DNA from: a virus
Direction: 5' to 3' (one strand)
Virus record (IMG/VR): IMGVR_UViG_3300033512_000238
Span: 1 to 45,369 of that record
Length of the DNA stretch: 45,369 nt
The position numbers and the translations under genes were made by a program. Below are positions 879 through 37,245 of the stretch, in pieces (position 1 is the stretch's first letter; every line of letters starts with the position of its first letter). Below the pieces are notes generated by a model that was not told the DNA's origin, did no database searches, and was given only the letters and a program-made list of their open reading frames with translations.

Positions 879-2467
879 AGCTCGAGCAAATGCAAATAAC
901 AGAGACGAAAATCTCGGACCTAATCGGGGCCGATTACAACCCGCGAATACTACTCGCGAAAGAGTTCGACGACCTCCGGGCGTCTCTCGACCGTTTCGGG
1001 ATAGTAGAACCGGCGGTCGTGAATAGACACCCCGGGCGGGAAAACGTAATAGTCGGGGGACACCAAAGAATAAACGTCGCGCGGGCTCTCGGGCGTGATA
1101 CATTCCCGGTGGTATTCGTTGACCTCGACGAGGAACACGAAAAGGAGCTAAACGTCCGACTCAATAAAAACGGCGGCCGGTGGGATTTTGATAAGCTCGC
1201 GAACCTTTTCGAGCTCGACGACCTCGTCGCGTGGGGATTCGAGGAGGGGGAACTCCTCGGGAGATGCGACGAACTACTCGACGAACTAAACGAGGAGGCA
1301 ATCGAAGCGGGACCCGGGGCGGAAGCGTCCGACGAACTCCCGGAGGTATCGGAAAACGACGCCGAAGTCGTATCGGTCCGGGGCGATGTTTGGGAGTGCG
1401 GCCGTCACCGGGTAATGTGCGGAGACTCGACGGCGTTCGGGGACCTCGAGAAGCTCCTCCCGGAGGGGGAACAAATCGCGACGATATACGCGGACCCTCC
1501 TTACGGCATGAAAAAAGAGGCGGACGGGGTAGCAAACGACAACCTCAACGACGACGACCTCCTCTCGTTCAACGTCGAGTGGTGGCGGACATTCCGGGCC
1601 CGGGCAAAACAAAACGCAAACGCGGTAATATTTGGGAACGCTCGCGTATTATGGAAATGGTGGTACTATCCGGAGATCGGCCTCGAGGCGTCGGAGCCGT
1701 TGACATTCAAAAACGAGATCGTATGGGCGAAAGGCTCCGCGCAGGGGAGAGGGTCGGACCTCGAAATCTCATTCCCGAACCAAACGGAGAGGGCTCTATT
1801 TTTCAACCTCGGGAAATTCGTTTCCGCTATCTCTCGAGACAGTTCGGAATATTTCGAGGAGTGGGAGCCGCTCCGGTTATACTTCGCGGGAGAGGCGGAC
1901 CGCTCCGGGCTTTCGGGGAAAAAATTCGACGAGCTCTCGAAAACAAACGGGATGCTCGGACACTATACGGGCCGTTCTCAGTGGTCATTCCCGACGCGGG
2001 AAAAATACGCGGTTCTCGATGAGTTCGGCGGCGGGGAATATTTCACGCGATCTTTCGACGACCTCCTCCGGGAATACAATCGAGCCCGGGCCGCGGTCGA
2101 CGCTAAACTCGAGGAGCTCCGGGGCTACTTTTGTTTGAACAACGACGCCGAACTCGACGACGTTCTCCGGGTCCCGGGAGTACAGGGAGACGAGAGACAC
2201 GGACACGCGACGCCGAAACCGGTCGAGCTAAACAAAAAAATACTCAAGACGATTACAAAGCCGGGGACGATAGTCGCGGAACCTTTCGGGGGCTCCGGGG
2301 CAACTCTCGCGGCGTGCGAAGAGCTCGGATTCGCCTCCCGTACTATGGAAATAGAACCGCGGTGGGTAGACGTTATCGTCCGGCGGTGGCAAAAGCAAAC
2401 AGGGCGGGCGGCATTTCACGCGGAGACGGGGAAACCTTTCGACGAATACGAACCGGGGCGGGAGTAA
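875..2467 (+). CDS. ParB-like nuclease domain fused to DNA methyltransferase (DPPY type, N6-adenine or N4-cytosine)
   Basis: The N-terminus has DYNPR ... VGGHQR (ParB/sulfiredoxin-like). The middle has IYADPPYG (motif IV). The C-terminus has VAEPFGGSGATL (motif I, FxGxG). The motif IV-before-I order indicates beta-class. Target sequence is unknown. Confidence 0.85.
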   Translation: MKLEQMQITETKISDLIGADYNPRILLAKEFDDLRASLDRFGIVEPAVVNRHPGRENVIVGGHQRINVARALGRDTFPVVFVDLDEEHEKELNVRLNKNGGRWDFDKLANLFELDDLVAWGFEEGELLGRCDELLDELNEEAIEAGPGAEASDELPEVSENDAEVVSVRGDVWECGRHRVMCGDSTAFGDLEKLLPEGEQIATIYADPPYGMKKEADGVANDNLNDDDLLSFNVEWWRTFRARAKQNANAVIFGNARVLWKWWYYPEIGLEASEPLTFKNEIVWAKGSAQGRGSDLEISFPNQTERALFFNLGKFVSAISRDSSEYFEEWEPLRLYFAGEADRSGLSGKKFDELSKTNGMLGHYTGRSQWSFPTREKYAVLDEFGGGEYFTRSFDDLLREYNRARAAVDAKLEELRGYFCLNNDAELDDVLRVPGVQGDERHGHATPKPVELNKKILKTITKPGTIVAEPFGGSGATLAACEELGFASRTMEIEPRWVDVIVRRWQKQTGRAAFHAETGKPFDEYEPGRE

Positions 2468-2637
2468 TGCAGGTGCAAAGATTAGGGGCGGCGGCTATTC
2501 TTTTTTTTGTTCTAGGGTTTACAGCAGGGACGGCGGAAAGCCTCAAAGGGTACGCCGCTTTTGTTGTTCTCGGGGTTTATTCGTGGAAATGGCTCGACAA
2601 CGCAATAGAACAGATTAGGAAAGAGCGGGGCAAATGA
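2467..2637 (+). CDS. small two-TM membrane protein (56 aa), holin-like topology
   Basis: ATG 2467 overlaps the TAA of the methyltransferase (TAATG). Two hydrophobic stretches (LGAAAILFFVLGF, AAFVVLGVYSW) are followed by a charged C-terminus (DNAIEQIRKERGK). Confidence 0.5.
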   Translation: MQVQRLGAAAILFFVLGFTAGTAESLKGYAAFVVLGVYSWKWLDNAIEQIRKERGK

Positions 2638-2790
2638 ACGGCCCGCGGGACATTCTCGAGGCTCTCGGGTTTTATGGCGTCGAACCGTCGAGAACTATCC
2701 CGCCGCCGAACCCGGGCACAAGTTCGCGGAGCTCAAGTAATCGGAGCGAAGCTCCTCGCGGGTTTTCGTTTTTCAACAGATCGGGTAAAA

Positions 2791-3420
2791 ATGGCGGAAA
2801 GTAAGAAGAAAAAAGGAAAGCCGAAAGCGGTCGGGGCGGGAGCTCAAAGGCAATACACGCCGGAGACTCTCGTCGAGATCGAGAACGCGGTATCTAACGG
2901 AGCCCAAACGGGCCCCGCTATCGCCGCCGCAATTGGAGTAACGCCACAGGCTTTCAACAATCATAGGTACCGAAAAACGAGCCCGGAGACGACAGAGAGA
3001 GCCGATGCAATCGAGAGGGCTATAAAAAGGGGACAAAGCCGCCGCCGCGAGTCGATCAAGTCGACCGCGGAGGACGCTCTCCTCAAACTTATAAAAGGCT
3101 TTGAACTCACGGACGAAATAGAGGAGGTCCGGAAGAAAACAGCGGCCCGGCCGAAAGGGTGGAAACCCGGAGACCCGGAGCCGTCGGAAGAGGTAAACGT
3201 CTACAAACGGCGGACCATCAAGAGATACGGCCCGAACGTCACGGCCGTTCTTTTTGCTCTCGTCAACAGTGACCCGGAGAGATGGCAGAGTATTTACTCC
3301 CGGAGCAATGCGGACGACGTGAACGAAAACGAAAACCGCGGAACTATTGCAAATTGGATGCGGCAACAAGTCGAAGCGGGCGCGAGAATGAACTCGAAAC
3401 GAAACGGCGGCGGGGAATGA
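2791..3420 (+). CDS. terS: terminase small subunit (putative, HTH-containing)
   Basis: Lies immediately upstream of, and overlapping (ATGA), the large terminase. It has a Lys-rich N-terminus then an HTH-like segment (GPAIAAAIGVTPQAFNNH). The ORF track extends to ATG 2674; I prefer ATG 2791 (MAESKKKKGK). Confidence 0.55.
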   Translation: MAESKKKKGKPKAVGAGAQRQYTPETLVEIENAVSNGAQTGPAIAAAIGVTPQAFNNHRYRKTSPETTERADAIERAIKRGQSRRRESIKSTAEDALLKLIKGFELTDEIEEVRKKTAARPKGWKPGDPEPSEEVNVYKRRTIKRYGPNVTAVLFALVNSDPERWQSIYSRSNADDVNENENRGTIANWMRQQVEAGARMNSKRNGGGE

Positions 3421-4655
3421 TACCAACGGACCTACAACTCGAAAGCCTCGAGAGTGCAAACGCGCGTCTAAATATTTGGCACGGGCCCGTTAGATCGGGG
3501 AAAACTATCGGGGCAAATATCCGGTGGGTGAAATTCCTTTTAGGGCTCGACAAACACGACTACCCCGGAAGCGGGGCGCTTTTTATCGCGGGCGTATCGG
3601 TCGGGTCGGCTCTCCGGAACGTCGTCGAACCATTGCGCGAAATGCTCGGGGAAGAGTGCAAATATATTCCCTCTCGGTCTATCGTCCGAATATTGGGGCA
3701 CGACGTTTACCTATTCGGGGCGGCGTCGGAGGGGTCGGAGAAACTTATCCGGGGGCTAACGTGCGCGGGCGCTCTACTCGACGAGGTAACACTCCTCAAC
3801 AAATCATTTTTTATGCAAACGCTCGCGCGTCTCTCAGTGAAGGGCGCGAAGCTATTCGGGGCAACGAACCCCGACAGTCCGAAACATTGGCTGAAGGCCG
3901 ATTTTCTCGACAAAAAAGCGGATCACAATCTCAAAGAGTATCTTTTCCCGCTCACAGCAAACACCTATCTCGACCCGGAGTACGTCGCGGCGCTATCTCG
4001 GGAGTATACCGGAATGTGGAGGGCTCGAAATATCGAGGGGAAATGGGTCGCGGCCGACGGTCTCGTTTATGAGGGATTCGAGGAGCGGGCGCCGTTCGTT
4101 ATTCCACAGGCCCCGGCGGCGGCAACCTCTTACTATATCACGGTCGATTATGGTATTCAAAACCCGACCGTTTTTCTTTTGATTGGTCGAAACCGTTTGA
4201 CCTCTCCGCGTATATGGTGCGAGCGGGAGTATTACCACAGCGGCCGCGAGACAAAAATCCTAAAAACGGACAAAGAACTCGCGGACGACCTTTACGAGTG
4301 GGCCGGGAGTTCGGTCCGTTCGAAGCTCCTCGGGATAGTCGTCGACCCGTCGGCGTCCTCTTTCATTGAGGAACTAAAGCGGCGGGGCCTCCCGGTAATG
4401 AAAGCGGAAAATGAGGTACTCCCGGGAATACAACGACAGGCGCGGGCGCTTTTTGCCGGAGATTACGCGATTTGTCGAGAGTGCCGGAAAACTATCGAGG
4501 AGTATTTTCTCTACCGGTTCGACTCGAAAGGGGTCCTGCTTGGTAAGGATATAGTGGTCAAAGACGCGGACCATACAAAAGACGCGGAGAGATATTATTT
4601 TAACACAGTAGAACACGGGCGGGGGATCGATTACGACCTATTCGCCGGAGACTAA
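3417..4655 (+). CDS. terL: terminase large subunit
   Basis: Walker A GPVRSGKT near the N-terminus and Walker B-like GALLDEV. Length and position before the portal fit. ATG 3417 overlaps the upstream TGA (ATGA). Confidence 0.9.
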   Translation: MIPTDLQLESLESANARLNIWHGPVRSGKTIGANIRWVKFLLGLDKHDYPGSGALFIAGVSVGSALRNVVEPLREMLGEECKYIPSRSIVRILGHDVYLFGAASEGSEKLIRGLTCAGALLDEVTLLNKSFFMQTLARLSVKGAKLFGATNPDSPKHWLKADFLDKKADHNLKEYLFPLTANTYLDPEYVAALSREYTGMWRARNIEGKWVAADGLVYEGFEERAPFVIPQAPAAATSYYITVDYGIQNPTVFLLIGRNRLTSPRIWCEREYYHSGRETKILKTDKELADDLYEWAGSSVRSKLLGIVVDPSASSFIEELKRRGLPVMKAENEVLPGIQRQARALFAGDYAICRECRKTIEEYFLYRFDSKGVLLGKDIVVKDADHTKDAERYYFNTVEHGRGIDYDLFAGD

Positions 4656-4671
4656 ACAGAAAGGGCCGGGA

Positions 4672-5991
4672 ATGAGAAAACGGATAACGAACCAACAACA
4701 GAACTTCGACGGGTGGGTCAATCTTTTTACCTTACTTGGTACGGAAAAAGACAGCAAAACGATGACGAAATTCGAGCCGGGCCGCTCTCTTACGGAGCAA
4801 GAGTGCGCGGACGTTTACGCGGAGAACGGAGTCTGCCGCCGAATTATTGAGGCATTCCCGAAACATGGAACCCGCCGTTGGATTGACCTCGAGAACGACG
4901 ACGACGACCGGTTCGGGAAAGAACTCCGGAGAATCGGGGCAAAAGCCGCATTTAGAGAGGCGGGAATCGAGGCCCGGACGTTTGGCGGGGCATATATCGC
5001 GATTTATACGGACGGATCCGCGGAACTAAACGAGCCGCTCGACCTATCAAAAGCGGTAACCGTTGACGAGCTCGAAGTTTTCGGGAGATTCGACGCGAAA
5101 CCGGTCTCGAGATACGGCCCGGACACCGGGAAAAAATCCGGGCGGCCGGAGCTCCTCGAGTGCTATCGGTGGGACGGTTCACACGCGACAATACACGAAA
5201 GCCGCCTCCTCTATTTCGACGGGGCTCGAGCAACGGCCCGCCGCCGCAAATTGAACGACGGGTACGGCGATTCTGTTCTCTCCTCTATTTACGAGTCGGC
5301 CCGCTCTTACGGCGCGTCTCTCGGGTATATTGAGACCCTTATACAATCTTACGACGTCCCGGTCCTAAACGTGGAGGGCCTCGCGGCTCAAATAGCCGGG
5401 GGCAACGAGGACCGAATAAAAAAGCGGTTTTCGTTTCTCAATCTCGGGCGCTCACTTTTAAATATGGTGATACTCGACAAAGATGAGAAATACACGCGGG
5501 GCGCCGCCTCTCTTACCTCAATTCCGGAAGTGATCGACCGTTTCGCCTCGAAACTATCGGCCGACTCGGGCGTCCCGGTTAAAATTCTCATGGGCTCGAG
5601 CCCCGCCGGTCTACAATCGACAGGGGACGCCGATATCCGTTCGTTTTATGATGAAATAGCCGACTTTCAAGTCGAGCAATTTGAGCCGAATCTCGACAAA
5701 TTACTCGCGGTTATCGAGACGGCTATCCCGCTTTTGTCGGCGGACCGTCCTCCCGTGGTAAAATGGCGGCCTCTTTGGGAACCGTCGGAAAAAGAAGCGG
5801 CGGAGACCCGGAAAATACAGGGAGATACGGACGGCCTTTATATCGACAAAGGCGTCGTGACTCCGGAGGAAATCCGGGAAAATCGGTTCGTCAATGGCGG
5901 CGGCTTAAATACGGCCGTTGAAAGTGTGGAACTCGACGACATGGACGACGCGGACGCGCTCGAAGAACAAAAGAAAAACGGGGGCGAATAG
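4672..5991 (+). CDS. portal protein (DUF1073-like)
   Basis: A 439-aa ORF between terminase and the MuF head protein, with an acidic C-terminus. The resemblance to DUF1073-type portals is from memory only. Confidence 0.75.
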   Translation: MRKRITNQQQNFDGWVNLFTLLGTEKDSKTMTKFEPGRSLTEQECADVYAENGVCRRIIEAFPKHGTRRWIDLENDDDDRFGKELRRIGAKAAFREAGIEARTFGGAYIAIYTDGSAELNEPLDLSKAVTVDELEVFGRFDAKPVSRYGPDTGKKSGRPELLECYRWDGSHATIHESRLLYFDGARATARRRKLNDGYGDSVLSSIYESARSYGASLGYIETLIQSYDVPVLNVEGLAAQIAGGNEDRIKKRFSFLNLGRSLLNMVILDKDEKYTRGAASLTSIPEVIDRFASKLSADSGVPVKILMGSSPAGLQSTGDADIRSFYDEIADFQVEQFEPNLDKLLAVIETAIPLLSADRPPVVKWRPLWEPSEKEAAETRKIQGDTDGLYIDKGVVTPEEIRENRFVNGGGLNTAVESVELDDMDDADALEEQKKNGGE

Positions 5992-8900
5992 TGAAAGCTC
6001 CGGCGATGCTCTACCCGACATTGATCGAGAAACAATTCGCGAACGACTCAGAACAATTCGGGGACGCTCTCCGGGCGTATGTTCTCGAGGAGTTCGTCCC
6101 GGAGCTCCGGGGAATAGCGGCCCGCGTGGAACGGGAGCGAACGGACGACGCGAACCTCCCGGGCGACGGGCATTGGTCGAGCGATATACAAAGAGCTCTC
6201 CGGAGACTAAAGAACAAAGCCGACGAGATAGCGGCAACCTCGGAACCTCTCGCGGACGCGGCGTCGTTCAAGGTCGAACAATGGACAAACAAGGAAATTT
6301 TGAAGCTCGAGAAGCTCCTCCCGGCCGATTACCTCGCGGCGAATAAAACCGGGTACAACCCGGAGAACATACGGAACAGCCTCCGGAAAGCGTGGTCCAA
6401 AAATTACGCGGGACTAATAACCGCGGTAACGGACGAAACGGTCGCGAAGGTCGGCCGCATTGTATACGAGGGATTCGCGGTGGGGGAGAGTTACAAGTCG
6501 ATAGAGAAAAAAATTATTTCCGGGGGGCCTATTGAGGCGCTAAAAAATCCGCCATTCAATACGGCCCGGAAGCGGTCGCGATTGATAGCCCGGGACCAAA
6601 TCGGGAAACTTAACGGGAAACTAATCGAGAAGCGACAAACACAGCTCGGGATAGATTCGTATATTTGGCGGACCTCTCTCGACGAGCGCGTCCGGGGGAA
6701 CCCGTCCGGGCGCTATCCGAACGCGGTCCCGTCTCATTATGGCCGGGAGGGGAAGGTCTACAAATGGGACACCCCGCCGGAGGGAGGACACCCCGGGGAG
6801 GCTATTTTGTGCAGATGTACGGCGGAGCCATATATCGAGGGAGTAACGGGGGAACAGGGGGCCGCGGGAGTGACCGGGAAAACTATCGGACCGGCTCAAA
6901 GCCTCGGGGCTAAAATCGAGAATCTCAGAACAGCGGCGGCGGCGGCTCTCAATCTCGCGAGCAATACGGCCGGTGAAGCTATCCGGGCTCTCTCGACAGC
7001 GGAAACGGCCGCGAAGGAACTCGAGGACCTCGTCGACGGAATAGTCGGGATAGAGGACGAACTCGACGAGCTCGCAAAGAAAGCCGCGACAGTGAAGCTG
7101 AACGAGAAACTAAAGCAAGCGGAAGCGGCGAAAGCGGCGGCGGCGGGGCTCTCCGGGAAAGCTCAAAAGGCGAAAGCGGCGGCGGAAAAGGTGAACAGCG
7201 CGAAAGCGGCCGGGCCCGCGGCAAAAGCACAAGCGGCGGCGGCATTGTCTCACGTCGAAAACATCGAGAAAACCCTCGAGGCTCTCGACAATGTTCTCGC
7301 AAAAGCGGTGGCGGCAAAAGCGGCGGCGGAGGATAAACTCGCGAAAGCTCTCGCAATCAAAAAAGCAAAAGCGGCGGCGCTCGAGGAGGCGGAGGACCTC
7401 GTCGATGGGCTCGAGGGAGTCGACGCGGCTATCGTAAAAAGTAAATTCACAAAGGGAGAGTTCGACGCCGACGGGGAGGCGTTCGCCAAAAACATAAAAG
7501 CCGAAGCGGCCGCCGTTCTCTCGAAACTGAAAAAGGGGGGCGCCGCTTTTCAAAAGGCCGAAAGCATGATCAAGGACGCCGACTATTATCTCGCGGCGAA
7601 GCTCAAGAGCGAAGCGGCAAAACTCGCGGCGCTATCAACAGCGAACACAACAGCGGACGCGGCTCTCGCGAGTAAATACGGGGTAAACGCCGCCGGGATA
7701 AAAGCGGTCGACGCGAGCGAATGGACGTACAAAAGCCCAAAACAGGGGTCGAACCCCGGGGGAATTTACGAGGACAAAGCCGGGGCCCGTTATATTGTAA
7801 AAGTTATGGACGAGGAACACGCTATAAACGAGCTCCTCGCGTCGAAACTCTACAAAGCGGCGGGCGTTCACACTTCCGACATGATGCTCGTCGAGGGCGT
7901 GAACTACAACGGGAAACCGACGAGGGCTCTCGCGGGCCGGTGGATCGACGGTTTAGAGTCGGGCGTCTCAGAACTCAAAAGCGCGAAAACGGGGCCGGGC
8001 GGCTTTATTGACGGCGCGGGTGTCGATATGTGGCTCGCGAATTGGGATTCCGTCGGGCTCACTATGGACAACATACTCAAGGACACAGCCGGGAACCTCG
8101 TCCGAATTGACGTAGGGGCCGCGATGAAATTCCGGGCGCAAGGTCAAAAGAAACCATTCGAGGCCGGAAAGGTCCCGGAGCTCGAAACGTACCTAAACGG
8201 GGTAAACGACCAAATAACACCGATTTTGTCGAAATATAGCGCGGACGATATAACCCGGAGTCTCGAGAAAGTCGCGAATTTTACGGACGAAACTATCGAC
8301 GACATTCTCGACACAGTGTGGAAAGGTTCGACGCTCCCGGATAAAACGCGGGAGGAGTACCGGGAAGCGCTCAAAGGGCGCCGGGACGTAATTCGGGCCG
8401 AATGGGAGAAAAGAGACGGACCGAAGCTCTCCGGGGCGGCTCTCCCGGGGGCGATAAAAGGGAAAGCCCCGAAACCGTTCGACCCGTTCGACGATTACAA
8501 ACCCGGTGACGCGGTCCCGTTCCTATCTCCGGAAAAGTCGGACCATTTCCTCGCGAAGTACAAGAGCAACGGGAAAACGACGATGAAAAACGCGCTCGAA
8601 GCGAACGGGCTCGAGTCGGACAAAAATCTCGTAACCTATCCGGACGACGTTATCGAGGACGTCAAAGAATGGATGACAAAAGCGGACAAAGCTATCGAGG
8701 GCGGCGGGCCATTCCCGAAACCGCTCGACCTAAACGCCATAAGTAAAAAGATAAAAGCGGCGGAGGACGCGAAAATCGCCGCGGCAAAACTCGCGAACAA
8801 AGCAACGGCGGAGGGATTAAACAAAATGGCCGCCGATTCTTACGTCAAGGCCGACGAACTCCTCGAGAAAGCTATCGACGAGCTATACACGGTGGAAAAA

Positions 8901-9977
8901 TCCGACTTTTTGACAGTGAAGAACAACGCGGAGAAAGCTCTCGCAATTGCAACGGACGCGAAAGAAACGGCGGAGAAAGCCGCGAAGCTAGGGTACGAAG
9001 AAAAGGCGGTAATTCAAGAGCTACAGCAGGTGATAGACAACGCGGAGGCGGTCCTCTCCTCTCCGGAGTATATCGCAATCAAAAAGAAAGCGGGCGGAGA
9101 CACCTCGGCAAAAGCCCGTACTATAGGGGCCATAACGGCAAAGGAAAAAGAGGAGCGCCGGAAAGAACTCGGGAGGGACAACACAAACCCGGCCGCCGCT
9201 TTCGTTTTACAGGAGGGGAAACCGCTCGCGCAAACTGCAGAGGGCTTTCGGATAGTATTCGCGGACGACAAAAAGTACGCGAAAGACCTCGTCGACGCCG
9301 GGGTACAAGGGGCCGACGGTTATCAGTTGAACCGCGGAGACGGGAAAAAAAGGTGGGTCTCTATGGTGAAAAAGAAAATAGAAGGGCCGTGGACAAAGGG
9401 GTCGAACCGCGACTATTTGGAACGCGATGGCGTCCCGTGGGATAAATACGGAACAGAGAAGGACGCGCACGAGGTTTTGAGAGATTACACCGGCGGGTCG
9501 TATGGCAGTAGAAACAACTATTTACGCGGAATATCAAACCCGAACCCGCTCACGGCCGCAAAGCTCGACAGGGAGCATAAAGCCGCGGCGGAGCTAATAA
9601 GGCAACACACGGTAAAGGAGCCGCTCGTCGTTTGGCGCGGAGGAGATACGGCTTTCCTTAATAGTTTACTAAAACAAAGCGGGAAAAAGCTCGAGGACCT
9701 CGTCGGGACGGTTTACACCGAACACGCCTTTATGAGTACAACGACGACACACCGGGTAGCGTTCGAAGGGGGGACACTTTTCCGCCTCAATGTGCCTAAA
9801 GGGGCGAAAGCTATCCCGGCCCGACATATTTCGCAAATAACGGGAGAGGACGAAATAATATTCCCGCCGACGACGCGGTTTTATATTTCGGATATTCAAA
9901 ACATCGACTCGAGCCATGTATTGCACAACGGGCGGCACAATCGAGTAATAACGGTCGAAATTTTACCGGAGGAGTAA
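5991..9977 (+). CDS. polyvalent head protein: MuF/SPP1-gp7 minor-capsid domain + kinase-like module + C-terminal mono-ADP-ribosyltransferase (R-S-ExE) module
   Basis: MuF signature RSRLIARDQIGKLNG ... GEAILCRCTAEPYI. Ala/Lys/Glu coiled-coil linkers. GSNPGGIYEDKAGARYIVK ... DMWLANWDSVGLTMDNIL ... RIDVG (atypical kinase-like). C-terminal VVWRGG / FMSTTT / GEDEIIFPP triad. GTG 5991 overlaps the portal TAG; the alternative start is ATG 6006. Confidence 0.8.
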   Translation: MKAPAMLYPTLIEKQFANDSEQFGDALRAYVLEEFVPELRGIAARVERERTDDANLPGDGHWSSDIQRALRRLKNKADEIAATSEPLADAASFKVEQWTNKEILKLEKLLPADYLAANKTGYNPENIRNSLRKAWSKNYAGLITAVTDETVAKVGRIVYEGFAVGESYKSIEKKIISGGPIEALKNPPFNTARKRSRLIARDQIGKLNGKLIEKRQTQLGIDSYIWRTSLDERVRGNPSGRYPNAVPSHYGREGKVYKWDTPPEGGHPGEAILCRCTAEPYIEGVTGEQGAAGVTGKTIGPAQSLGAKIENLRTAAAAALNLASNTAGEAIRALSTAETAAKELEDLVDGIVGIEDELDELAKKAATVKLNEKLKQAEAAKAAAAGLSGKAQKAKAAAEKVNSAKAAGPAAKAQAAAALSHVENIEKTLEALDNVLAKAVAAKAAAEDKLAKALAIKKAKAAALEEAEDLVDGLEGVDAAIVKSKFTKGEFDADGEAFAKNIKAEAAAVLSKLKKGGAAFQKAESMIKDADYYLAAKLKSEAAKLAALSTANTTADAALASKYGVNAAGIKAVDASEWTYKSPKQGSNPGGIYEDKAGARYIVKVMDEEHAINELLASKLYKAAGVHTSDMMLVEGVNYNGKPTRALAGRWIDGLESGVSELKSAKTGPGGFIDGAGVDMWLANWDSVGLTMDNILKDTAGNLVRIDVGAAMKFRAQGQKKPFEAGKVPELETYLNGVNDQITPILSKYSADDITRSLEKVANFTDETIDDILDTVWKGSTLPDKTREEYREALKGRRDVIRAEWEKRDGPKLSGAALPGAIKGKAPKPFDPFDDYKPGDAVPFLSPEKSDHFLAKYKSNGKTTMKNALEANGLESDKNLVTYPDDVIEDVKEWMTKADKAIEGGGPFPKPLDLNAISKKIKAAEDAKIAAAKLANKATAEGLNKMAADSYVKADELLEKAIDELYTVEKSDFLTVKNNAEKALAIATDAKETAEKAAKLGYEEKAVIQELQQVIDNAEAVLSSPEYIAIKKKAGGDTSAKARTIGAITAKEKEERRKELGRDNTNPAAAFVLQEGKPLAQTAEGFRIVFADDKKYAKDLVDAGVQGADGYQLNRGDGKKRWVSMVKKKIEGPWTKGSNRDYLERDGVPWDKYGTEKDAHEVLRDYTGGSYGSRNNYLRGISNPNPLTAAKLDREHKAAAELIRQHTVKEPLVVWRGGDTAFLNSLLKQSGKKLEDLVGTVYTEHAFMSTTTTHRVAFEGGTLFRLNVPKGAKAIPARHISQITGEDEIIFPPTTRFYISDIQNIDSSHVLHNGRHNRVITVEILPEE

Positions 9978-9982
9978 GGGAT

Positions 9983-10261
9983 ATGGAAAGGGAAAACACG
10001 GGGGAGATACTCGACGAGTCGGGCCTCTCGCAATGTTTATTTTGTACACGATGGACCGGGCGGGGAACGTGCGAAGCCTATCCGGGGGAACCGTTCAAAG
10101 TGCCGGTGGTTATTCTCGCGAATAAACACGATCACCGGGACGCCTATCCGGGGGACGGCGGTCTCCTATTTTCTCCGGCGAATAGAGAAAGCGCGATAAA
10201 ACAGGACAAAGCCGTCGAACGGGCTCGAGTCGGGTCGATTACTTTTAGAGGGGGGAAATAG
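9983..10261 (+). CDS. hypothetical small Cys/His-containing protein (92 aa)
   Basis: ORF track, with GAGGAG about 10 nt upstream. Contains CLFC ... C ... HDH, a possible metal site. No family recognised. Confidence 0.5.
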   Translation: MERENTGEILDESGLSQCLFCTRWTGRGTCEAYPGEPFKVPVVILANKHDHRDAYPGDGGLLFSPANRESAIKQDKAVERARVGSITFRGGK

Positions 10262-10500: not shown

Positions 10501-10544
10501 TCGCTTTTTTATTGTTTTAGTGTTATATTTTAGAATGTAACAAC
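10501..10544 (+). promoter_or_regulatory. promoter P1 with near-palindromic box (extended -10 TGTTATATT; weak -35)
   Basis: TATATT at 10524-10529 preceded by TGT. Box TGTTATATTT-TA-GAATGTAACA at 10521-10542. Same box as at four other loci. Confidence 0.6.
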
Positions 10545-10552
10545 GAAGGACA

Positions 10553-10581
10553 GCCCGAAGGGCAAAACAAAGGTGGACCAA
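10553..10581 (+). promoter_or_regulatory. leader hairpin + Shine-Dalgarno unit, copy 1
   Basis: GCCC-GAA-GGGC followed by AAAACAAAGGTGGACCAA then ATG 10582. Confidence 0.55.
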
Positions 10582-11472
10582 ATGGAACAAATCAAAGCAG
10601 TAGCGACAGTCAAAACAACAAAAGCAGGGGAAACGGTTTATCATTACGCGGTAGCACTCCCGGCAATGACAGCGGACGACGGCGAAGAAATGGCCGCTGT
10701 CGAATCAACTCGCAAAACTGACAACAAGTACAGCCACGTTGTATTGTGGAATAGTAAAAGAGGCGTCCCGGTCGTTTGTGGATATACGAACGACGCGGCC
10801 GGATATATTGCCCGGACTCTCTCAGAGGACAACCGCCTCCGGAAAATGTACAAAAAGGAGCCATTAACAGCGGCGGACCATTGTCTCCGGGCGGTCGCGA
10901 TTGAGTTCGTAGAAGCTCCGGTAAAAGCTCCGAAAACAGCAAAAGCAAAAGCGGAAGCGGCTCCGGTTATCGAAGCGGCTCCGGCTATCGAAGAAACCCC
11001 GGCCCCGGTAGCTCTCGAAGCGGCTCCGGTCGCTCCGGTTGTCCCGACAGCGGCGGAGGCGAATCTCGACGGTTTTGTCGTCGAGATCGACAGAACCACC
11101 GGCGTTTGTTTTATCTCCGGGGGGAAGTACAACGCGGAGAAAGCGCTCACTATTATTCACCGAAACGATTGGTGGCTCCGAAACATCGGGGAGGACGTCC
11201 TCGACCTTATCGCGACGGTGAACAATAGCGATATACACGGCCGCGAGTTCAAAGAGGCGGCCTATCAACTCCTTAAAATTTGCCAACCGGAAGAACAGGC
11301 GGCCGCCGCAATCGCGACAACGGACGAGGAGGAAAGCGTCCTGCGTCAACTCTCATACGTTCACGGATTCACGTCGACACCGGAGGAGACTCCGGAGCCA
11401 AACGTCGAGAAACTTATCCGGGCCGCATTTTTGAACGGGAGACAGCGCGGGAGAACCGCCGGGAAAGAATAA
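10582..11472 (+). CDS. hypothetical two-domain early protein with Ala/Pro-rich linker (296 aa)
   Basis: First ORF after P1. The ATG sits at the spacing seen in the other leader units. The middle is APVKAPKTAKAKAEAAPVIEAAPAIEETPAPVALEAAPVAPVVP. No family recognised. Confidence 0.65.
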   Translation: MEQIKAVATVKTTKAGETVYHYAVALPAMTADDGEEMAAVESTRKTDNKYSHVVLWNSKRGVPVVCGYTNDAAGYIARTLSEDNRLRKMYKKEPLTAADHCLRAVAIEFVEAPVKAPKTAKAKAEAAPVIEAAPAIEETPAPVALEAAPVAPVVPTAAEANLDGFVVEIDRTTGVCFISGGKYNAEKALTIIHRNDWWLRNIGEDVLDLIATVNNSDIHGREFKEAAYQLLKICQPEEQAAAAIATTDEEESVLRQLSYVHGFTSTPEETPEPNVEKLIRAAFLNGRQRGRTAGKE

Positions 11473-11481
11473 CAGCAACGG

Positions 11482-11504
11482 CCCCGGGGGGAACTCTCCC
11501 GGGG
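11482..11504 (+). other. GC-rich intercistronic stem-loop (no U-tract)
   Basis: CCCCGGG (11482-11488) pairs with CCCGGGG (11498-11504), directly after stop 11470-11472. Confidence 0.4.
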
Positions 11505-11514
11505 AGACTTGAAA

Positions 11515-11544
11515 GCCCGAAGGGCAAAACGAAAGGGGCCAAAA
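11515..11544 (+). promoter_or_regulatory. leader hairpin + Shine-Dalgarno unit, copy 2
   Basis: GCCC-GAA-GGGC followed by AAAACGAAAGGGGCCAAAA then ATG 11545. Confidence 0.55.
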
Positions 11545-11805
11545 ATGGCAAAGATATTTTTCACAAACGGGGCGGAGATCGAGGTCGACCTCGCGCCGAA
11601 ATTTAAGGCCGGGGAGATTCTCCCGATATTACAGGGGCTTTTGGGCGGCTATATCCAAATAGCAACGGCGGTCGATACGGACGCCGGGACCGTCCTCGTA
11701 ATTGTGAACGAGGACGGGCTCGCGCTCGGGCTCGATCAAAACGCGCGGTTCCCTCAGTACGTCGGAACAGTGGTAACGGTTATCGACGGCGTCGAGATAG
11801 ACTAA
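11545..11805 (+). CDS. DUF3846-like protein (86 aa)
   Basis: ILQGLLGGYIQIA ... LVIVNEDGLALGLDQNARF matches my recollection of the DUF3846 pattern (l..lq..vGGyie.v ... NEeG.l.gLp.N). Confidence 0.55.
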   Translation: MAKIFFTNGAEIEVDLAPKFKAGEILPILQGLLGGYIQIATAVDTDAGTVLVIVNEDGLALGLDQNARFPQYVGTVVTVIDGVEID

Positions 11806-11812
11806 CAAGACA

Positions 11813-11833
11813 GGCCCGGGGAGGTCCCGGGCC
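11813..11833 (+). other. GGCCCGGG/CCCGGGCC intercistronic stem-loop (no U-tract)
   Basis: GGCCCGGG 11813-11820, loop GAGGT, CCCGGGCC 11826-11833, followed by AAAACG rather than a T-run. Confidence 0.45.
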
Positions 11834-11859
11834 AAAACGTAGAACGAGGAGAAAAAAAA

Positions 11860-12252
11860 ATGGACAAAATGCCGAAAGAACTCGAAAGAATTATTCACGC
11901 GAAAATCGAGCGCGAACTCCGCAAAAATGACACAAGAGCGGGACAACTAACGGACGCGGAAAAGGCCGCATGGCTCGAGGTTCAAGAGCTCGCGGACGCC
12001 TCCCGACAAATCCGGGAGAAGCTCAAGACGAAACAACGCCTATTTTGGGCCATTCTCGAGAGTCGTCTCGAGATATACGACAAAAATCTCCATTTGGACG
12101 AGAAAACGGGGGAGGTTTTCGTCTCCGGGAAACGAACCCGCGAAGAGGTCGAGACAGCGGTCCGGGAGGCTCTCAAAGGGACGCCGCTCGAGGGAGCCGC
12201 AGAGAATTTCAGTTTTGACGTTTTCGGGGACGACGAGGAGGCCCGCGAGTGA
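11860..12252 (+). CDS. hypothetical protein (130 aa)
   Basis: ORF track. GAGGAG plus an A-run upstream of the ATG. Helical and charged. No family recognised. Confidence 0.6.
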   Translation: MDKMPKELERIIHAKIERELRKNDTRAGQLTDAEKAAWLEVQELADASRQIREKLKTKQRLFWAILESRLEIYDKNLHLDEKTGEVFVSGKRTREEVETAVREALKGTPLEGAAENFSFDVFGDDEEARE

Positions 12253-12527
12253 TTAAATATGAAGTTTTTCAAGACGGGTCGGAGTGGATAGCCCGGTCCC
12301 AAAATGGCAAAGAGGCCAAAGGGAACACAGCGGCGGAGGCTCTCGAGAATCTCGTCCGGGAGGAGATAATCGAGTACAACCTCGCGACGGGGAGAACGTG
12401 CGATAAATGCGAAAACTCGACACAGGACGCCGGGGGGAATTTCTCTTGCACTCTCGACGAACTATTCGACGACGAGGGGGAGCAAGTAGCCCCGGGCCAT
12501 ACTTGCGAGGGGTATCTCGGGTGGTAA
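12249..12527 (+). CDS. hypothetical Cys-containing protein (92 aa)
   Basis: GTG 12249 overlaps the upstream TGA (GTGA). Contains CDKC ... C ... C, a possible zinc ribbon. Confidence 0.5.
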   Translation: MIKYEVFQDGSEWIARSQNGKEAKGNTAAEALENLVREEIIEYNLATGRTCDKCENSTQDAGGNFSCTLDELFDDEGEQVAPGHTCEGYLGW

Positions 12528-13131
12528 AAGAGACAGCAATACAAAAACCGGAGGGCTTTCGGGAAATATGGCGGCGCTCTCCGCTTTTGCGGCAGGATTA
12601 TTGGGTCTCAAATTTGGGTCGCCTCCGGAGGACGACAGGGGCGGGGGCGGCCCCAAAGGGTGGCGGGCCGATTCTCACGGGGAAAAAGGGGCGGGAAAGT
12701 CGATTTTGTACAAAGTAATGAACCCCGAAGGGAAGAAAAAACAATTTACGGCCGGGCGCCTCGTCGCGTCGGCCTTTTTGGGGTACACGGGGCCGGGAAA
12801 CCGGGTCGTATATCTTGACGGGGACGCGGAGAACCTCCGGCCGGAAAATCTCAAGATAGCCGCCTCCGCGAGCGAAGCTATCCGGGAGCAACGGGCACGA
12901 CTACCCCGGGCCATTGCCTCGAGTTTCACCGGGGAGCCGTATATCCGGACAGAGAACACTCCGGCGGGGGAACGGTTCTCGGTTTATTTGGGCATGAGGT
13001 ACGAACGGTTCAAGAAGTACGGGGGACAATGGGAGACCCTCGAAAAGGCGGTTATCGAGCGGGACCGGCTCGTCGATAGATACGAAGCGGCGATAATGAT
13101 CGCGGAGAAAAATATCATAACGATAAAATAA
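12521..13131 (+). CDS. NUMOD4 / HNH_3-like / AP2-like homing-endonuclease homologue. It needs a -1 shift near 12682-12688, and the catalytic His positions are substituted (possible pseudogene).
   Basis: Frame 2 from GTG 12521 (GAGGGG upstream) gives EIWRRSP ... YWVSNLGRLRR (NUMOD4) and stops at 12716-12718. Frame 1 (ORF track 12568..13131) continues with GKSILYKVMNPEGKKKQFTAGRLVASAFLG ... VVYLDGDAENLRPENL (HNH_3-like, His replaced) and GERFSVYLGMRYERFKKYGGQWETLEKAV (AP2-like). The junction run is GGGGAAAAAGGGG. Confidence 0.6.
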
Positions 13132-13133
13132 AT

Positions 13134-13176
13134 TTGACATTTCGCGCTCTCAGTGTTATATTTCAAAATGTAACAA
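13134..13176 (+). promoter_or_regulatory. promoter P2 (TTGACA-17-TATATT) with near-palindromic box
   Basis: TTGACA 13134-13139, 17-nt spacer ending TGT, TATATT 13157-13162. Box TGTTATATTT-CA-AAATGTAACA at 13154-13175. Confidence 0.75.
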
Positions 13177-13186
13177 GTAACGGACA

Positions 13187-13215
13187 CCCCGCCGGGGAAA
13201 ACAAAGGACTAAAAA
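13187..13215 (+). promoter_or_regulatory. leader hairpin + Shine-Dalgarno unit, copy 3
   Basis: CCCC-GCC-GGGG followed by AAAACAAAGGACTAAAAA then ATG 13216. Confidence 0.5.
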
Positions 13216-13470
13216 ATGATTCAAGAACTCAAAGCGGCGAACCTCACAACAGCTCAAAAGATCAACCTCGGAAAATCTCGCGCTCGTCAAGTATGGGGGG
13301 AGGCGATTCTCGCGGAACCGCGCTTCGCTTTCGAGCTCTCTCTCGCGGTTAAATTCGATAACGTACTCGACTTTTTGAAAAATAGCCGCGTCGGGCAACC
13401 GGCGGACGAGCGTTTCGCCTCACGTCGTCAGCGCATCTATTTTTGGACTCTCGCGAATACTATCAACTAA
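13216..13470 (+). CDS. hypothetical protein (84 aa)
   Basis: Single ORF between P2 and the terminator at 13481. No family recognised. Confidence 0.55.
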   Translation: MIQELKAANLTTAQKINLGKSRARQVWGEAILAEPRFAFELSLAVKFDNVLDFLKNSRVGQPADERFASRRQRIYFWTLANTIN

Positions 13471-13480
13471 AAAACAAACA

Positions 13481-13513
13481 GGCCCGGAGGCGAAAGTCTC
13501 CCGGGCCTTTTCT
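13481..13513 (+). terminator. intrinsic terminator (bulged GGCCCGG stem + T-rich tail)
   Basis: GGCCCGGAGG 13481-13490 pairs with CTCCCGGGCC 13498-13507 (one bulge), followed by TTTTCT. Confidence 0.55.
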
Positions 13514-13520
13514 ATTGACA

Positions 13521-13550
13521 CCCCGAAGGGGGAAACGAAAGGCGGCCAAA
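13521..13550 (+). promoter_or_regulatory. leader hairpin + Shine-Dalgarno unit, copy 4
   Basis: CCCC-GAA-GGGG followed by GAAACGAAAGGCGGCCAAA then ATG 13551. Confidence 0.5.
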
Positions 13551-14210
13551 ATGGCACGAGAAAAAGAGTTCGACCTCGACGCGGCTATCGCGGAGACGGT
13601 TCGGAAATTTACGGCGGGGGATTGTTTTCTCCTCGCGTCAAAAGTGAAAGCCTCGAAAGGTCTCGTTTGTAAGCGATTCTTTACGGGAGAGGACGCGGCG
13701 GAGGGCCTCCGGGCGTCTCGCGTTGGTCTATCGGTCGGCCGCGTGGAGTGGTCCGGCGTTTGGATTGTACCGGCGGACAAACGCGACGGCGTCGCAGATC
13801 AATTCGAACACAAAAACGAGATACCGGTCGAGGGCCTCGTCGCTTTTGCCTCTCGAGCAATCGGGGCCGATAGCGTGGACCATTACCGGGCATTTAATCG
13901 CCTTTTCCCTTTCGACGCTCGAGACCTCGCGACCGGGCCTCTTATCGCGACGAAAAAGGGAAAGGAGTCTTGGGAGTTTCTCCGGGTCGGCCATAACAAA
14001 ACAACGGAAGCGCTCGAGACCATGAAAGCTATACACCGGGGGGAGAGTTTCGGGGAGATTATCGTCGCGGCGGGTCCGGACGGCGAACGGGTCCGGGGAA
14101 TGATCGCGGACGGGCAAATCGAGCGGGCTCGAGATGTTTCGATTTATTGGGGGACAACTCCGGACCCTCGAGGGAAAGCTCTCGCAATGTATCAAGGCGG
14201 CGAACAATGA
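13551..14210 (+). CDS. hypothetical protein (219 aa)
   Basis: ORF track 13443..14210. I prefer ATG 13551, which has the conserved leader unit. No family recognised. Confidence 0.6.
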   Translation: MAREKEFDLDAAIAETVRKFTAGDCFLLASKVKASKGLVCKRFFTGEDAAEGLRASRVGLSVGRVEWSGVWIVPADKRDGVADQFEHKNEIPVEGLVAFASRAIGADSVDHYRAFNRLFPFDARDLATGPLIATKKGKESWEFLRVGHNKTTEALETMKAIHRGESFGEIIVAAGPDGERVRGMIADGQIERARDVSIYWGTTPDPRGKALAMYQGGEQ

Positions 14211-14464
14211 TCCGCGGGGAGCTCCTTATATTGGGAGAAAAGTCGAACGAGTTTTCGGACCGGACCGCCGGGGCGTTGTGGATTACAGAAAAGGCCGCGC
14301 TCGAAAATGGGTGGGACGTGATTAGGGCCGATTATGGCGAAGATTGGGCCGGGCTTTACGGCCCCGGGATTGAATACTCCCCGGTTTTAATGGTTTTAAA
14401 AATAGAAGGGACTCCGGTCGGAATCTCGATAGCGTGTAGGGGCTCGAATAATGGGAAAAAGTAG
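14207..14464 (+). CDS. hypothetical protein (85 aa)
   Basis: ATG 14207 overlaps the upstream TGA (ATGA). Confidence 0.5.
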   Translation: MIRGELLILGEKSNEFSDRTAGALWITEKAALENGWDVIRADYGEDWAGLYGPGIEYSPVLMVLKIEGTPVGISIACRGSNNGKK

Positions 14465-14702
14465 TATTTTGTATTTTGTGAACGACGGGCCGGACGAGTC
14501 TCATGTTTTTTGGGAGTCGTCGCAATTCGGGACCCTAAAAGAGGCCCGGGAGTATATCCAAACGCTCGCGGCGGGGCGTTGGTATCGCCTCGAGAGGCAC
14601 GATTACAGCAATGTAAAACCGTTCGCCGTTTCAACCCCGGAGAACGTCCGGACAATTGAAGGGCCAAAAGAGAAAAAAAACGACGAGGAGGTCGGGAAAT
14701 GA
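14451..14702 (+). CDS. hypothetical protein (83 aa) ending in the KKNDEEVGK junction cassette
   Basis: ORF track. Its last 9 codons are part of the repeated AAAAAACGACGAGGAGGTCGG(G)AAATGA cassette. Confidence 0.5.
   Translation: MGKSSILYFVNDGPDESHVFWESSQFGTLKEAREYIQTLAAGRWYRLERHDYSNVKPFAVSTPENVRTIEGPKEKKNDEEVGK
14673..14702 (+). promoter_or_regulatory. junction/RBS cassette, copy 1
   Basis: aaaaaaaacgacgaggaggtcgggaaatga. A strong GAGGAGG SD, with ATG 14699 overlapping TGA 14700-14702. Confidence 0.6.
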
Positions 14703-14896
14703 ATCGAGAAAACAAAACAATCGTAACAATTGCCGGGAAAGAATACAACGCGACCGGCTTTCAAATCAACGCGCCTCACTTTATGGCCGGGCCGCAATGG
14801 CTCAAGACTCCGGGACGGATCGCGGTCGCGGTCGTTCACTCAAAGAGAACAGAAAACGCGCTTTATTTTGGAACGGGGGCCGCAAATGGTCGGTAA
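14699..14896 (+). CDS. hypothetical protein (65 aa)
   Basis: ATGA overlap with the upstream ORF and a strong SD. No family recognised. Confidence 0.5.
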   Translation: MNRENKTIVTIAGKEYNATGFQINAPHFMAGPQWLKTPGRIAVAVVHSKRTENALYFGTGAANGR

Positions 14897-15587
14897 ATTA
14901 TGGCATTGTGATTTGGAAACCGGCGGACTCAACCCGCGGACCTCCGCAATAGTGCAGGTCGCTTGTATCATGGAAATAGACGGCGAAAAAGTCGGCCGGT
15001 TCTCCTCTTTGGTTCGGCCATTCCCGGGGCTCGAATGTACGGACGAGGCTCTCGCTATTTCGGGAATACAACGCGCGGACCTCGAAGGGGCTCCGGACGA
15101 GAAACGAGTATTTTCGGAAATGTTCGCTTGGCTTTCGGCTTATGTTTCGAAGTTCGACAAAGCCGACAAAGCAATTTTTACAGGGTACAACTCGCAGTTC
15201 GACGACGGATTCGTCCGGGCCGCTTGCGACCGTCACGGGGAGAAATACCTCGGGTCTTGGAAATGGCCCGACGTTTACGACGTCCGGGGAGCCGCGGCGC
15301 TCTATTGTCTCCCGTATCGCCATTGGCTCCCGGACTTTCAACTCGGGACCGTTTCGGAGTTCCTCCTCCGGGATTACGACAGCCCGGAAATGATCGCAAC
15401 GACGGTAGCGCGGGCGCTTGGTATTCCCGGAACAGGTCTGCACGACGCGCGGGTCGATATTGAGCTCTCGAGGCTTTTATTTCATAAGGTCCGACAGCCG
15501 TTTCAATTCCGAATATCTCGGGAGGAGCTCGAGAGACGCCTCGAGCACGTTCGCGAGTTCAAAGAGGCGAAAGGGGGCCAAAAATGA
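14886..15587 (+). CDS. DEDDh 3'-5' exonuclease (DnaQ/epsilon-like)
   Basis: WHCDLETGGL (Exo I D-x-E), YNSQFDDGF (Exo II) and GLHDARVDIELS (Exo III H-x4-D). ATG 14886 is chosen within ORF 14730..15587. Confidence 0.75.
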   Translation: MVGKLWHCDLETGGLNPRTSAIVQVACIMEIDGEKVGRFSSLVRPFPGLECTDEALAISGIQRADLEGAPDEKRVFSEMFAWLSAYVSKFDKADKAIFTGYNSQFDDGFVRAACDRHGEKYLGSWKWPDVYDVRGAAALYCLPYRHWLPDFQLGTVSEFLLRDYDSPEMIATTVARALGIPGTGLHDARVDIELSRLLFHKVRQPFQFRISREELERRLEHVREFKEAKGGQK

Positions 15588-15940
15588 GCGGCCTCCCGTG
15601 GACAAAGGAGCTAAAACAGATCGCCGCGGAGATCGAGACCAAACGAGACCCCGAAACGGCGGCGGACATTGTTCGAGACCTCGCGAGACAGGTCCGGGAG
15701 TTATCGGCGGGGACCGGCCGGGAGTTATCGGCCGCGCGGGAAATGCTCGACGAGCTCCGGGCGCTCTTTGGTCAGTACAAGTTCGAAACGGCGGGGAAAA
15801 TCGAAGAGCTCGAGGGGAATCTCGAAGAACAGCGGACGTATATCTCCGCGCTCGATGACTCTCTCCTCCGGCCGGACGGGGAGGCCGCGAGGTTTTGGGC
15901 TCAAAGCATACGAGAAGAAAGGGCGGCGGAGAATGGGTAA
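15584..15940 (+). CDS. hypothetical coiled-coil protein (118 aa)
   Basis: ATG 15584 overlaps the upstream TGA (ATGA). Charged and helical. Confidence 0.5.
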   Translation: MSGLPWTKELKQIAAEIETKRDPETAADIVRDLARQVRELSAGTGRELSAAREMLDELRALFGQYKFETAGKIEELEGNLEEQRTYISALDDSLLRPDGEAARFWAQSIREERAAENG

Positions 15941-16289
15941 TTTTTTAGACGTTGACGCGATCAAAAGCCGACAGAGACCGGCGGCATATTTCCCACTAAA
16001 GCGGAAGTGGTTCGAAGAGATCAAAGCCGGGACAAAAACAGAGGAGTACAGGGAAAAAACACAGCGAAGAGCGGCTCAGCTCGCGAAGCTCGTCCCGGGG
16101 GACGTGATCGAGTTTTCTCTCGGCTATCCCAAAAAGGACGACAAAGAGCGGAGAATACAAAAGCGTTTTCTATCGGTCGAGAGTCGAACCATTGAGCACG
16201 AGGAGTTCGGCGGGGAGAGTCTCGAGGTTTTCGCGATACTATTCGAGAACATACCGGAAACGGCGGGCCGCGCGGAGTTTTCTATATAG
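15933..16289 (+). CDS. ASCH-like domain protein (118 aa)
   Basis: FPLKRKWFEEIKAGTKTEEYRE ... GDVIEFSLGY resembles the ASCH beta-barrel pattern (from memory). ATG 15933 lies within ORF 15669..16289. Confidence 0.45.
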   Translation: MGNFLDVDAIKSRQRPAAYFPLKRKWFEEIKAGTKTEEYREKTQRRAAQLAKLVPGDVIEFSLGYPKKDDKERRIQKRFLSVESRTIEHEEFGGESLEVFAILFENIPETAGRAEFSI

Positions 16290-16348
16290 CGGGGGGCAAA
16301 AGGAAAGGAACCTAACAACGAGACAGCCCCGACAGCAACTAAAACGAG

Positions 16349-16384
16349 GCCCGGAGATAGTTCGACACTGCTCCGGGCTTTTTG
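16349..16384 (+). terminator. intrinsic terminator ending the early block
   Basis: GCCCGGAG 16349-16356 pairs with CTCCGGGC 16371-16378, then TTTTT. Confidence 0.7.
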
Positions 16385-16483
16385 CGTCTCAAAACAACTC
16401 GTTTGAGCGGTCGGCCCTCCGGCCTCGCGTATAGTATTAAACAAATTAAAAAACAAATACAATACAATAGCAGTAACACTACA

Positions 16484-16580
16484 CGTTCATGCTTTGCAAA
16501 GGTTCGCGATTGCTTTCGCTTTGCTCTCTTTTCGTTTTGCAATTGATAAGCAAATGCAAAGCAATTGCAAAGCAAAAGAA
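16484..16580. repeat. dyad array of TTTGC / GCAAA(G) pentamers
   Basis: The left half has TTTGC-type units (gctttgcaaag, ttgctttcgctttgctc, ttttgcaattg). The right half has GCAAA units (aagcaaatgcaaagcaattgcaaagcaaaag). The array lies 30-125 nt upstream of the late promoter -35. Confidence 0.6.
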
Positions 16581-16609: not shown

Positions 16610-16639
16610 TTGACAAAAAAACGAAAATAGTCGTATATT
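16610..16639 (+). promoter_or_regulatory. late-operon promoter (TTGACA-18-TATATT), without the 24-nt box
   Basis: TTGACA 16610-16615 and TATATT 16634-16639, with a T-run immediately upstream (UP-like). Confidence 0.65.
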
Positions 16640-37142: not shown

Positions 37143-37152
37143 GTTCAAAATG

Positions 37153-37210
37153 AAAGCAAAATAAAAGCAAAAGAAAGCAAATGCAAAGCAAAAAACGACG
37201 ATTGCAAAAC
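37153..37210 (+). repeat. direct array of six GCAAA pentamers
   Basis: GCAAA at 37156, 37167, 37177, 37183, 37188 and 37204. The first three are about 10-11 nt apart. AT-rich context between the terminator and promoter P3. Confidence 0.6.
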
Positions 37211-37245
37211 AGCGCGTGTAACTGTAATGCTATGTTCTTTTTATT

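Follow-up and report, generated by a model that had tools for sequence, protein, structure and literature searches.

What function is served by a near-palindromic box that recurs, always in the same orientation, across the -10 region of five promoters in a single phage genome? The window analysed here, a stretch of 45,369 nt, ends in an exact 141-bp terminal repeat (1-141 and 45229-45369), and several metagenomes contain contigs of ~45.1-45.2 kb that are nearly identical to it but circularly permuted; the window therefore corresponds to a complete phage genome of ~45,228 bp. This uncultured, metagenomic phage is myovirus-like and probably virulent. All convincing genes lie on the + strand. Neither an integrase nor an immunity repressor was detected with Pfam and PHROG among 49 of the predicted proteins, the window contains no tRNA genes, and Rfam 15 gives no match at the gathering score across its whole length. 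In its portal protein the phage shares at most 32% identity with any isolate, and no close isolate emerged when 8 kb were compared by megablast with 50,697 phage records.

The leftmost module (875-9977) encodes a ParB-methylase, the terminase, the portal protein and a MuF-ADP-ribosyltransferase fusion. The latter, a 1328-aa protein (5991-9977), combines an N-terminal Mu F-like head domain with a C-terminal ADP-ribosyltransferase domain, the ~850 middle residues having no assignment, and is probably ejected together with the DNA, a parallel with T4 Alt. An island (10573-16546) of small early-type genes, one of them for an HNH protein and one for an RNase T-like exonuclease, splits the morphogenesis module, with the portal and MuF genes on one side and the scaffold and capsid genes on the other. 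The structural and lysis block (16763-37082) encodes a scaffold-like DUF2213 protein, the major capsid protein, a DUF3383 protein, a Dit-like protein, baseplate J, a collar protein and a C92 peptidase.

Scanning the whole window with TGTTATATTTNNAAATGTAACA as the query and up to 3 mismatches allowed recovered five + strand copies of TGTTATATTT-NN-AAATGTAACA plus one degenerate copy, whereas none of 100 dinucleotide shuffles contained a match. Boxes starting at 13154, 37294, 40675 and 42140 are free of mismatches and the one at 10521 has a single mismatch; minus-strand matches appear at the same sites because the box is a dyad. The five-copy core described in the first-pass annotation thus holds, and so does the reported symmetry upon recomputation: 9 of the 10 arm positions can pair (in copy 1, 8 of 10), and the odd pair is T opposite G in every copy. 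With the left arm fixed and a spacing of 0-8 nt allowed, nine or more pairing positions have a p of ~5e-4 to 2.5e-3. The degenerate sixth copy (TGTTATACTTTGAAATATAAAA, + strand) also exists, with 3 mismatches and 8 of 10 arm positions paired, although it occupies 37247-37268, 47 bp upstream of the P3 box, rather than 37246-37266 as originally placed. It is not kept in the relative described below; it could be an accessory site or what is left of a tandem promoter that has decayed. Lone half-sites at window position 40213 and at position 290 of contig L274 are not conserved and were taken as chance occurrences.

Each of the five copies holds the extended -10 element TGT-TATATT, and in four of them a -35-like hexamer precedes TATATT by exactly 17 nt. 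A consensus promoter scan independently listed TTGACA, TTGATA, TTGTAA and TGGATA, each 17 nt from a TG-preceded TATATT, in agreement with the earlier assignment, in which copy 1 was considered weak. In P1 (10501-10542; box TGTTATATTTTAGAATGTAACA, 10521-10542), TCGCTT, at the weak -35 position ahead of a 17-nt spacer, overlaps the T-tail of the preceding terminator. P1 precedes genes 10573-13131, and P2 (13134-13175; TTGACA-17-TGT-TATATT; box 13154-13175) precedes genes 13216-16289, including that for the RNase T-like exonuclease, so that the two promoters serve the early-type island. P3 (37274-37315; TTGATA-17-TGT-TATATT; box 37294-37315) heads the replication operon (37360-40646), which encodes a Lin1244-type initiator, a DnaC-like loader and both of the helix-turn-helix (HTH) candidates discussed below. 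P4 (40655-40696; TTGTAA-17-TGT-TATATT; box 40675-40696) is followed by a long GC-rich leader, a 51-aa gene and the gene for a YqaJ-type exonuclease (41052-42065), and P5 (42120-42161; TGGATA-17-TGT-TATATT; box 42140-42161) by genes from 42224 onwards for recombination and nuclease functions, including HNH and VRR-NUC proteins. All five promoters face the + direction. An internal contrast is provided by the promoter of the structural (late) operon on the same strand (16610-16639; TTGACA-18-TATATT), which is kept in the relative and, as had been noted, lacks the box; the boxes are indeed confined to non-late transcription units.

The earlier statement that the boxes mostly follow terminators applies to P1, P3 and P5, which have a terminator-like hairpin upstream, but not to P2 and P4, which begin straight after the previous stop codon. 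The leaders of P3 and P5 share a further 23 bases past the box, close to the ~25 first estimated. Judging from the position of the hexamer, the predicted start site is a purine of the box, either A15 or G17, located 6 or 8 nt past the hexamer. The P4 leader (40697-40814) is 118 nt long and GC-rich, with several hairpins, and has no Rfam match; the leader of P4 in the relative measures only 17 nt, indicating that the P4 leader element is lineage-specific.

Conservation of the box in related phages, which the first-pass annotation had proposed as a check, was borne out in a close relative represented by two IMG/VR contigs from sample 3300033512 (together ~45 kb; portal proteins 79% identical), the only related lineage with usable DNA for a full box comparison. 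Five boxes occupy orthologous promoters in this phage. In the resulting alignment of 10 sites from the two phages, TGTTATATT and AATGTAACA never vary; position 10 is restricted to Y and position 13 to R, and the two bases at the centre are free to vary. All 18 core positions are thus invariant in 10 of 10 sites, and 90 of 90 positions agree in orthologous pairs. Ungapped identity between orthologous pairs is 51% upstream, 91% within the box and 43% downstream. TGT-TATATT is present at all 10 sites, and a -35 hexamer (TTGnnn or TGGATA) lies 17 bp upstream in 8 of them, P1 of both phages having TCGCTT instead. Across the 10 sites the -35 hexamers comprise TCGCTT, TTGACA, TTGATA, TTGTAA, TGGATA, TTGCGG and TTGCAT, and the spacers and leaders have diverged. 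An invariant core set against diverged flanks and variable -35 hexamers suggests that the constraint exceeds, and differs from, what recognition by polymerase requires; T3 of the TGn element and A14-A15 are examples of such additional constrained positions. Positions 10 and 13 form four Watson-Crick pairs, four T.G pairs and two C.A pairs and do not co-vary as pairs; being independently Y and R, they fit a degenerate half-site, TGTTAYATTY, and not base pairing. Contigs 99.7-99.9% identical to the window offer no power for the detection of polymorphism. In the relative (L007 12328-12440), the P2 box is followed only by a 6-codon mini-ORF and then by a terminator-like hairpin, where the window has an 84-aa gene (13216-13470).

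We consider it close to an even bet (roughly 0.48) that the box combines a sigma-70-type promoter with the operator of a dimeric phage repressor that turns the early operons down together. This reading starts from observed features, namely the sequence anatomy of the box, which is both non-random and conserved, and the HTH-like model obtained for one candidate regulator. The host sigma-70-type RNA polymerase would use the A-rich upstream tract, the -35 hexamer 17 bp upstream and TGT-TATATT (box positions 1-9), and the same 22 bp, spanning about -15 to +7, would double as inverted half-sites, TGTTAYATTY-NN-RAATRTAACA. A phage-encoded dimeric HTH protein would bind the box and exclude the polymerase, the most likely binder being gp40245-40646, itself a product of the boxed P3. 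The five early, replication and recombination operons, including that of the regulator, would fire at infection, and the accumulating regulator would then lower all five, either as Cro-like negative feedback or as early shut-off, with the structural operon, under its unboxed 16610 promoter, escaping the regulator. Protein binding, the identity of the binder, repression and its timing are what we infer here. The constant T in the left half-site, as opposed to the C-equivalent in the right one, at half-site position 6 would be explained by the need for the left half-site to serve also as the -10 hexamer. Promoter function alone, however, accounts almost fully for the left arm, which counts against an operator; as to co-variation of the half-sites, the core arm positions do not vary among the 10 sites.

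Two further syntenic lineages, reached through the 278-aa gene downstream of P3, bear on the relationship between the two arms. The third lineage (L248/L249; 55% identity) contributed one promoter, TAGACT-17-TGTTATATT followed by CTCAATTACAGAACAGC, in which the left arm is kept and both the right arm and ATGTAA are absent. The more distant L250 (NCBI DYSA01000002.1; 49% identity in the neighbouring protein; GC content of 42.5% versus 55% in the window) was examined over 20.9 kb. Here, TATATTAACCTATGTAAGCAACAACG is common to the promoters that lie upstream of YqaJ and of the 286-aa orthologue; both lack TGT and show arm pairing at only 4-5 of 10 positions. Nevertheless, in L250 ATGTAA lies exactly 5 nt past TATATT, the same offset as in the window, and is followed by (G)CAACAACG, as in ATGTAACAAC; each of the two is preceded, at a distance of 35 nt, by another TATATT-N5-ATG. 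The presence of ATGTAA without the dyad indicates that the right arm can be conserved independently of the dyad, which weakens the case for an operator, and the right arm may be constrained as a start-site or 5'-RNA element. Two readings of the pattern are possible: a joint origin of the palindrome and gp40245 in the lineage of the window, as an operator would predict, or an ATGTAA element older than the dyad and independent of it, in favour of a function at the start site or in the 5' RNA. L250 also has a two-copy promoter box of its own, TTTTTATATTTTnTTATGC-N19-TATATTAACCTATGTAAGCAACAACG (9926-9990 and 13819-13883), and a tRNA-Lys(CTT) gene (15015-15097) past YqaJ, in the gap that P5 occupies in the window.

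The first-pass annotation had named two HTH-like proteins as candidate regulators, and they fared differently. The best candidate for a box-binding protein is the 133-aa gp40245 (40245-40646, + strand), encoded by the last gene of the P3 operon. Residues 8-53 match the PHROG 'transcriptional regulator' category weakly (E = 1.3e-3), and the AF2 model (pLDDT 78) has N-terminal helices at residues 4-21, 25-31, 36-44 and 51-62 and a beta-rich C-terminal domain. In the model, the N-terminal domain superposes on the HTH domains of SinR, XRE-family proteins, restriction-modification C-proteins and many phage Cro/C1-type proteins; the Foldseek matches have TM values of 0.6-0.8 (0.6-0.7 for SinR, XRE and C-protein domains), rmsd values of 1.4-2.4 A (about 2 A for these three) and probabilities of 0.97-1.0, although their E-values are only 0.02-0.6. 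Thus, gp40245 appears, from the predicted structure, to carry an N-terminal Xre-like HTH domain. Searches against Pfam returned nothing, and the sole homologue among 5.8 billion proteins is the orthologue in the close relative (66% identical), in which the putative recognition helix is nearly unchanged. No homologue turned up in the 20.9 kb of L250 or among the database proteins from the samples of the third lineage; homologues were thus found only in the two palindrome-bearing lineages, an association that rests on one phylogenetic split.

For the second, weaker candidate, the 74-aa gp38198 (38198-38422, + strand), the proposed HTH was not confirmed beyond an HTH-like sequence pattern. The protein is 82% conserved in the relative, but Pfam, PDB and single-sequence AF2 (uninformative) yielded nothing on its fold, and exhaustive HMMER searches recovered two remote homologues and no family. 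Its homologues are always encoded directly upstream of the Lin1244-type initiator, also in lineages without the palindrome. Given that gp38198 travels with the initiator regardless of the palindrome, a replication-linked role appears more likely for this protein.

Several other explanations of the box have to be weighed against a phage operator. Of these, we regard as unlikely, yet worth serious consideration, that the box is nothing more than a core promoter of great strength joined to a conserved element at the start site or in the initially transcribed stretch; no dedicated repressor would exist, and the dyad would be largely a by-product. In that case, AAATGTAACA would run from the discriminator through the start site into the first 6-8 bases of the transcript, conserved for start-site choice, promoter escape or as a 5' RNA tag (GUAACA..., or AUG-UAA from A15). 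A common 5' RNA tag had been offered as an alternative from the outset, and it gains from the two orthologous L250 promoters, where ATGTAA keeps its distance from the hexamer without TGT or a full palindrome, and loses from the promoter of the third lineage, which is devoid of ATGTAA. The early promoters of T4 likewise combine a UP-like A tract, -35, TGn and -10 elements with extra consensus, and T4 packages the ADP-ribosyltransferase Alt (PMC2988021); the boxed promoters resemble them in element make-up and in the extra consensus, and the MuF-ADP-ribosyltransferase fusion (5991-9977), probably ejected, recalls Alt. Unlike in T4, however, the -35 hexamers here are variable, and the extra conservation lies downstream of the -10 element and mirrors it. 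Hexamers such as TCGCTT, TGGATA and TTGCGG are far from uniformly optimal, which argues that maximal affinity for polymerase is not what is selected. Furthermore, the invariant T3, A14 and A15, which have no known contact with polymerase, mirror each other, and pairing at 9 of 10 arm positions is unlikely to arise by chance. A narrower version, to which we attach little credence, takes the right arm for a 5'-terminal start-stop mini-ORF rather than, primarily, an operator half-site: with transcription starting at A15, every early mRNA would begin 5'-AUG-UAA, a leaderless start codon immediately followed by a stop. Such a tag could load 70S ribosomes at the 5' end, protecting the transcript or feeding strong downstream ribosome-binding sites, or, alternatively, could mark early mRNAs for a phage factor. 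We also considered the right arm as an antisense promoter and as a sigma-dependent pause element and rejected both, the bottom-strand TACATT having no -35 partner and not being kept in L250, and the top strand lacking a TAnnnT pattern.

Palindromes with ends of the TGTNA/TNACA type are used by several bacterial regulator families, and the box might instead be the operator of a host-encoded global regulator, placed by the phage so that infection tracks the physiological state of the host. The genomes and contigs searched make this explanation improbable. The box pattern matched 14 times in 185,579 species genomes, each time as a single copy, in unrelated taxa and mostly within coding sequence, a number close to chance expectation, and none of the matches showed homology to the window phage; the absence of any multi-copy or taxon-consistent box argues against a widespread host regulon. 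Metagenome contigs likewise had chance single boxes among the matches listed, and the spacing of the box differs from that in the consensus sites of TnrA/GlnR, CRP, Fur, LexA and Rex. In IMG/VR, multiple copies occur only in the one relative, the other 88 stretches being single chance palindromes, and profile-based scans revealed no new box-bearing relative. The L250-type box pattern gave chance matches only. The only apparent multi-copy box among the metagenome matches listed, in L100, L136 and L181, was discarded, as it lies inside a repetitive 1414-aa fibre-like gene, and P0003, P0040 and P0081, which came up as possible relatives through the portal and the 278-aa gene, proved to be non-syntenic phages. 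Finally, we give very little weight to the inverted repeat acting as a nucleic-acid structure, whether an RNA hairpin involved in processing or stability or an extruded DNA hairpin promoter of the N4 type. The + strand mismatch would be a U.G wobble, so that RNA could form a 9-bp stem, and without a terminator before P2 and P4 read-through RNA would span the whole box. However, the stem is AU-rich and weak (-5 kcal/mol), positions 10 and 13 yield C.A mismatches rather than compensation, transcripts begun at the box carry the right arm only, and Rfam has no match. The AU-rich stem with its 2-4 nt centre also differs from the short GC stem and 3-nt loop of N4-type hairpin promoters, canonical -35 and -10 elements are present, and there is no gene for a giant virion RNA polymerase, the largest ORF being that of the 1328-aa MuF/ADP-ribosyltransferase protein.

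If the box is a composite promoter-operator, its closest parallels are the lambdoid Cro/CI operators (lambda OR/OL, 434 and P22) and the sites of Xre repressors and C-proteins, in which a dyad likewise covers the -10/+1 region of early promoters. As in those systems, a small phage protein with an apparent Xre-like HTH is the candidate for binding and is encoded behind a promoter that it would control, which would amount to autoregulation, and the site has an AT-rich centre with conserved outer bases. Unlike the tripartite OR/OL clusters, however, the five operators would be single and dispersed, and the site, at 22 bp with 9-10 conserved bases per half-site, is longer than usual. In further contrast to lambdoid phages, neither a divergent repressor/cro pair nor, among the scanned proteins, an integrase was found, and all genes lie on one strand; gp40245 also differs from the lambdoid and Xre proteins in having no family membership at the sequence level. 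One short motif near several lytic promoters is also characteristic of dispersed regulons, such as those of phage P1 C1, the stoperators of L5 and cluster A phages (PMC9283540, PMC6550527) and the inverted repeats of phiC31, and the box shares with them a single orientation relative to transcription. The sites of phages P1 and L5, however, are asymmetric, bound by monomers and serve temperate immunity, whereas the box has dyad symmetry and the scanned proteins gave no hint of lysogeny; neither the asymmetric sites nor the lysogeny functions of a temperate immunity regulon of the P1 C1 or L5 gp71 stoperator kind were found. L5 sites also occur within operons, where they stop elongation, whereas every copy of the box is fused in register to a -10 hexamer.

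Should the operator reading be correct, the whole early programme of this phage would hang on one 22-bp site and a small HTH protein without a family, a compact and perhaps portable repressor-operator pair that would show an operator built into an extended -10 element. This kind of control is tidy but familiar, and the finding leaves the understanding of phage regulation unchanged. Only the conservation of ATGTAA where transcription is predicted to start, which does not depend on lineage, is out of the ordinary and could be new.

Additional repeated elements accompany these promoters. Repeats of the type TGCAAAGCAA / AAGCAAA form arrays with an ~11-bp period at 16489-16576, just upstream of the unboxed late promoter, where the array is inverted, and at 37150-37212, upstream of P3. 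They are kept in the relative (L007 about 15540-15600 and L039 about 1900-2010) and may represent iterons or an origin, or else bind a second regulator, for instance, a late activator; the 54-aa 'ORF' (16382-16546) that overlaps the first array is probably not a gene. A leader module in which a short GC hairpin (GGACA-CCCC-NNN-GGGG) precedes AAAACAAAGG(N)GGA and a start codon recurs at 10545-10572, 13180-13205, 42185-42215 and 42630-42660. It also occurs within an operon without a box promoter, as well as in the relative, and probably acts as a cassette for translation initiation or mRNA stability. The sole stretch of the window that does not align with contigs L001-L004, which are otherwise 99.7-99.9% identical, is a short variable segment (250-375) in or beside an HNH-like gene (235-744).
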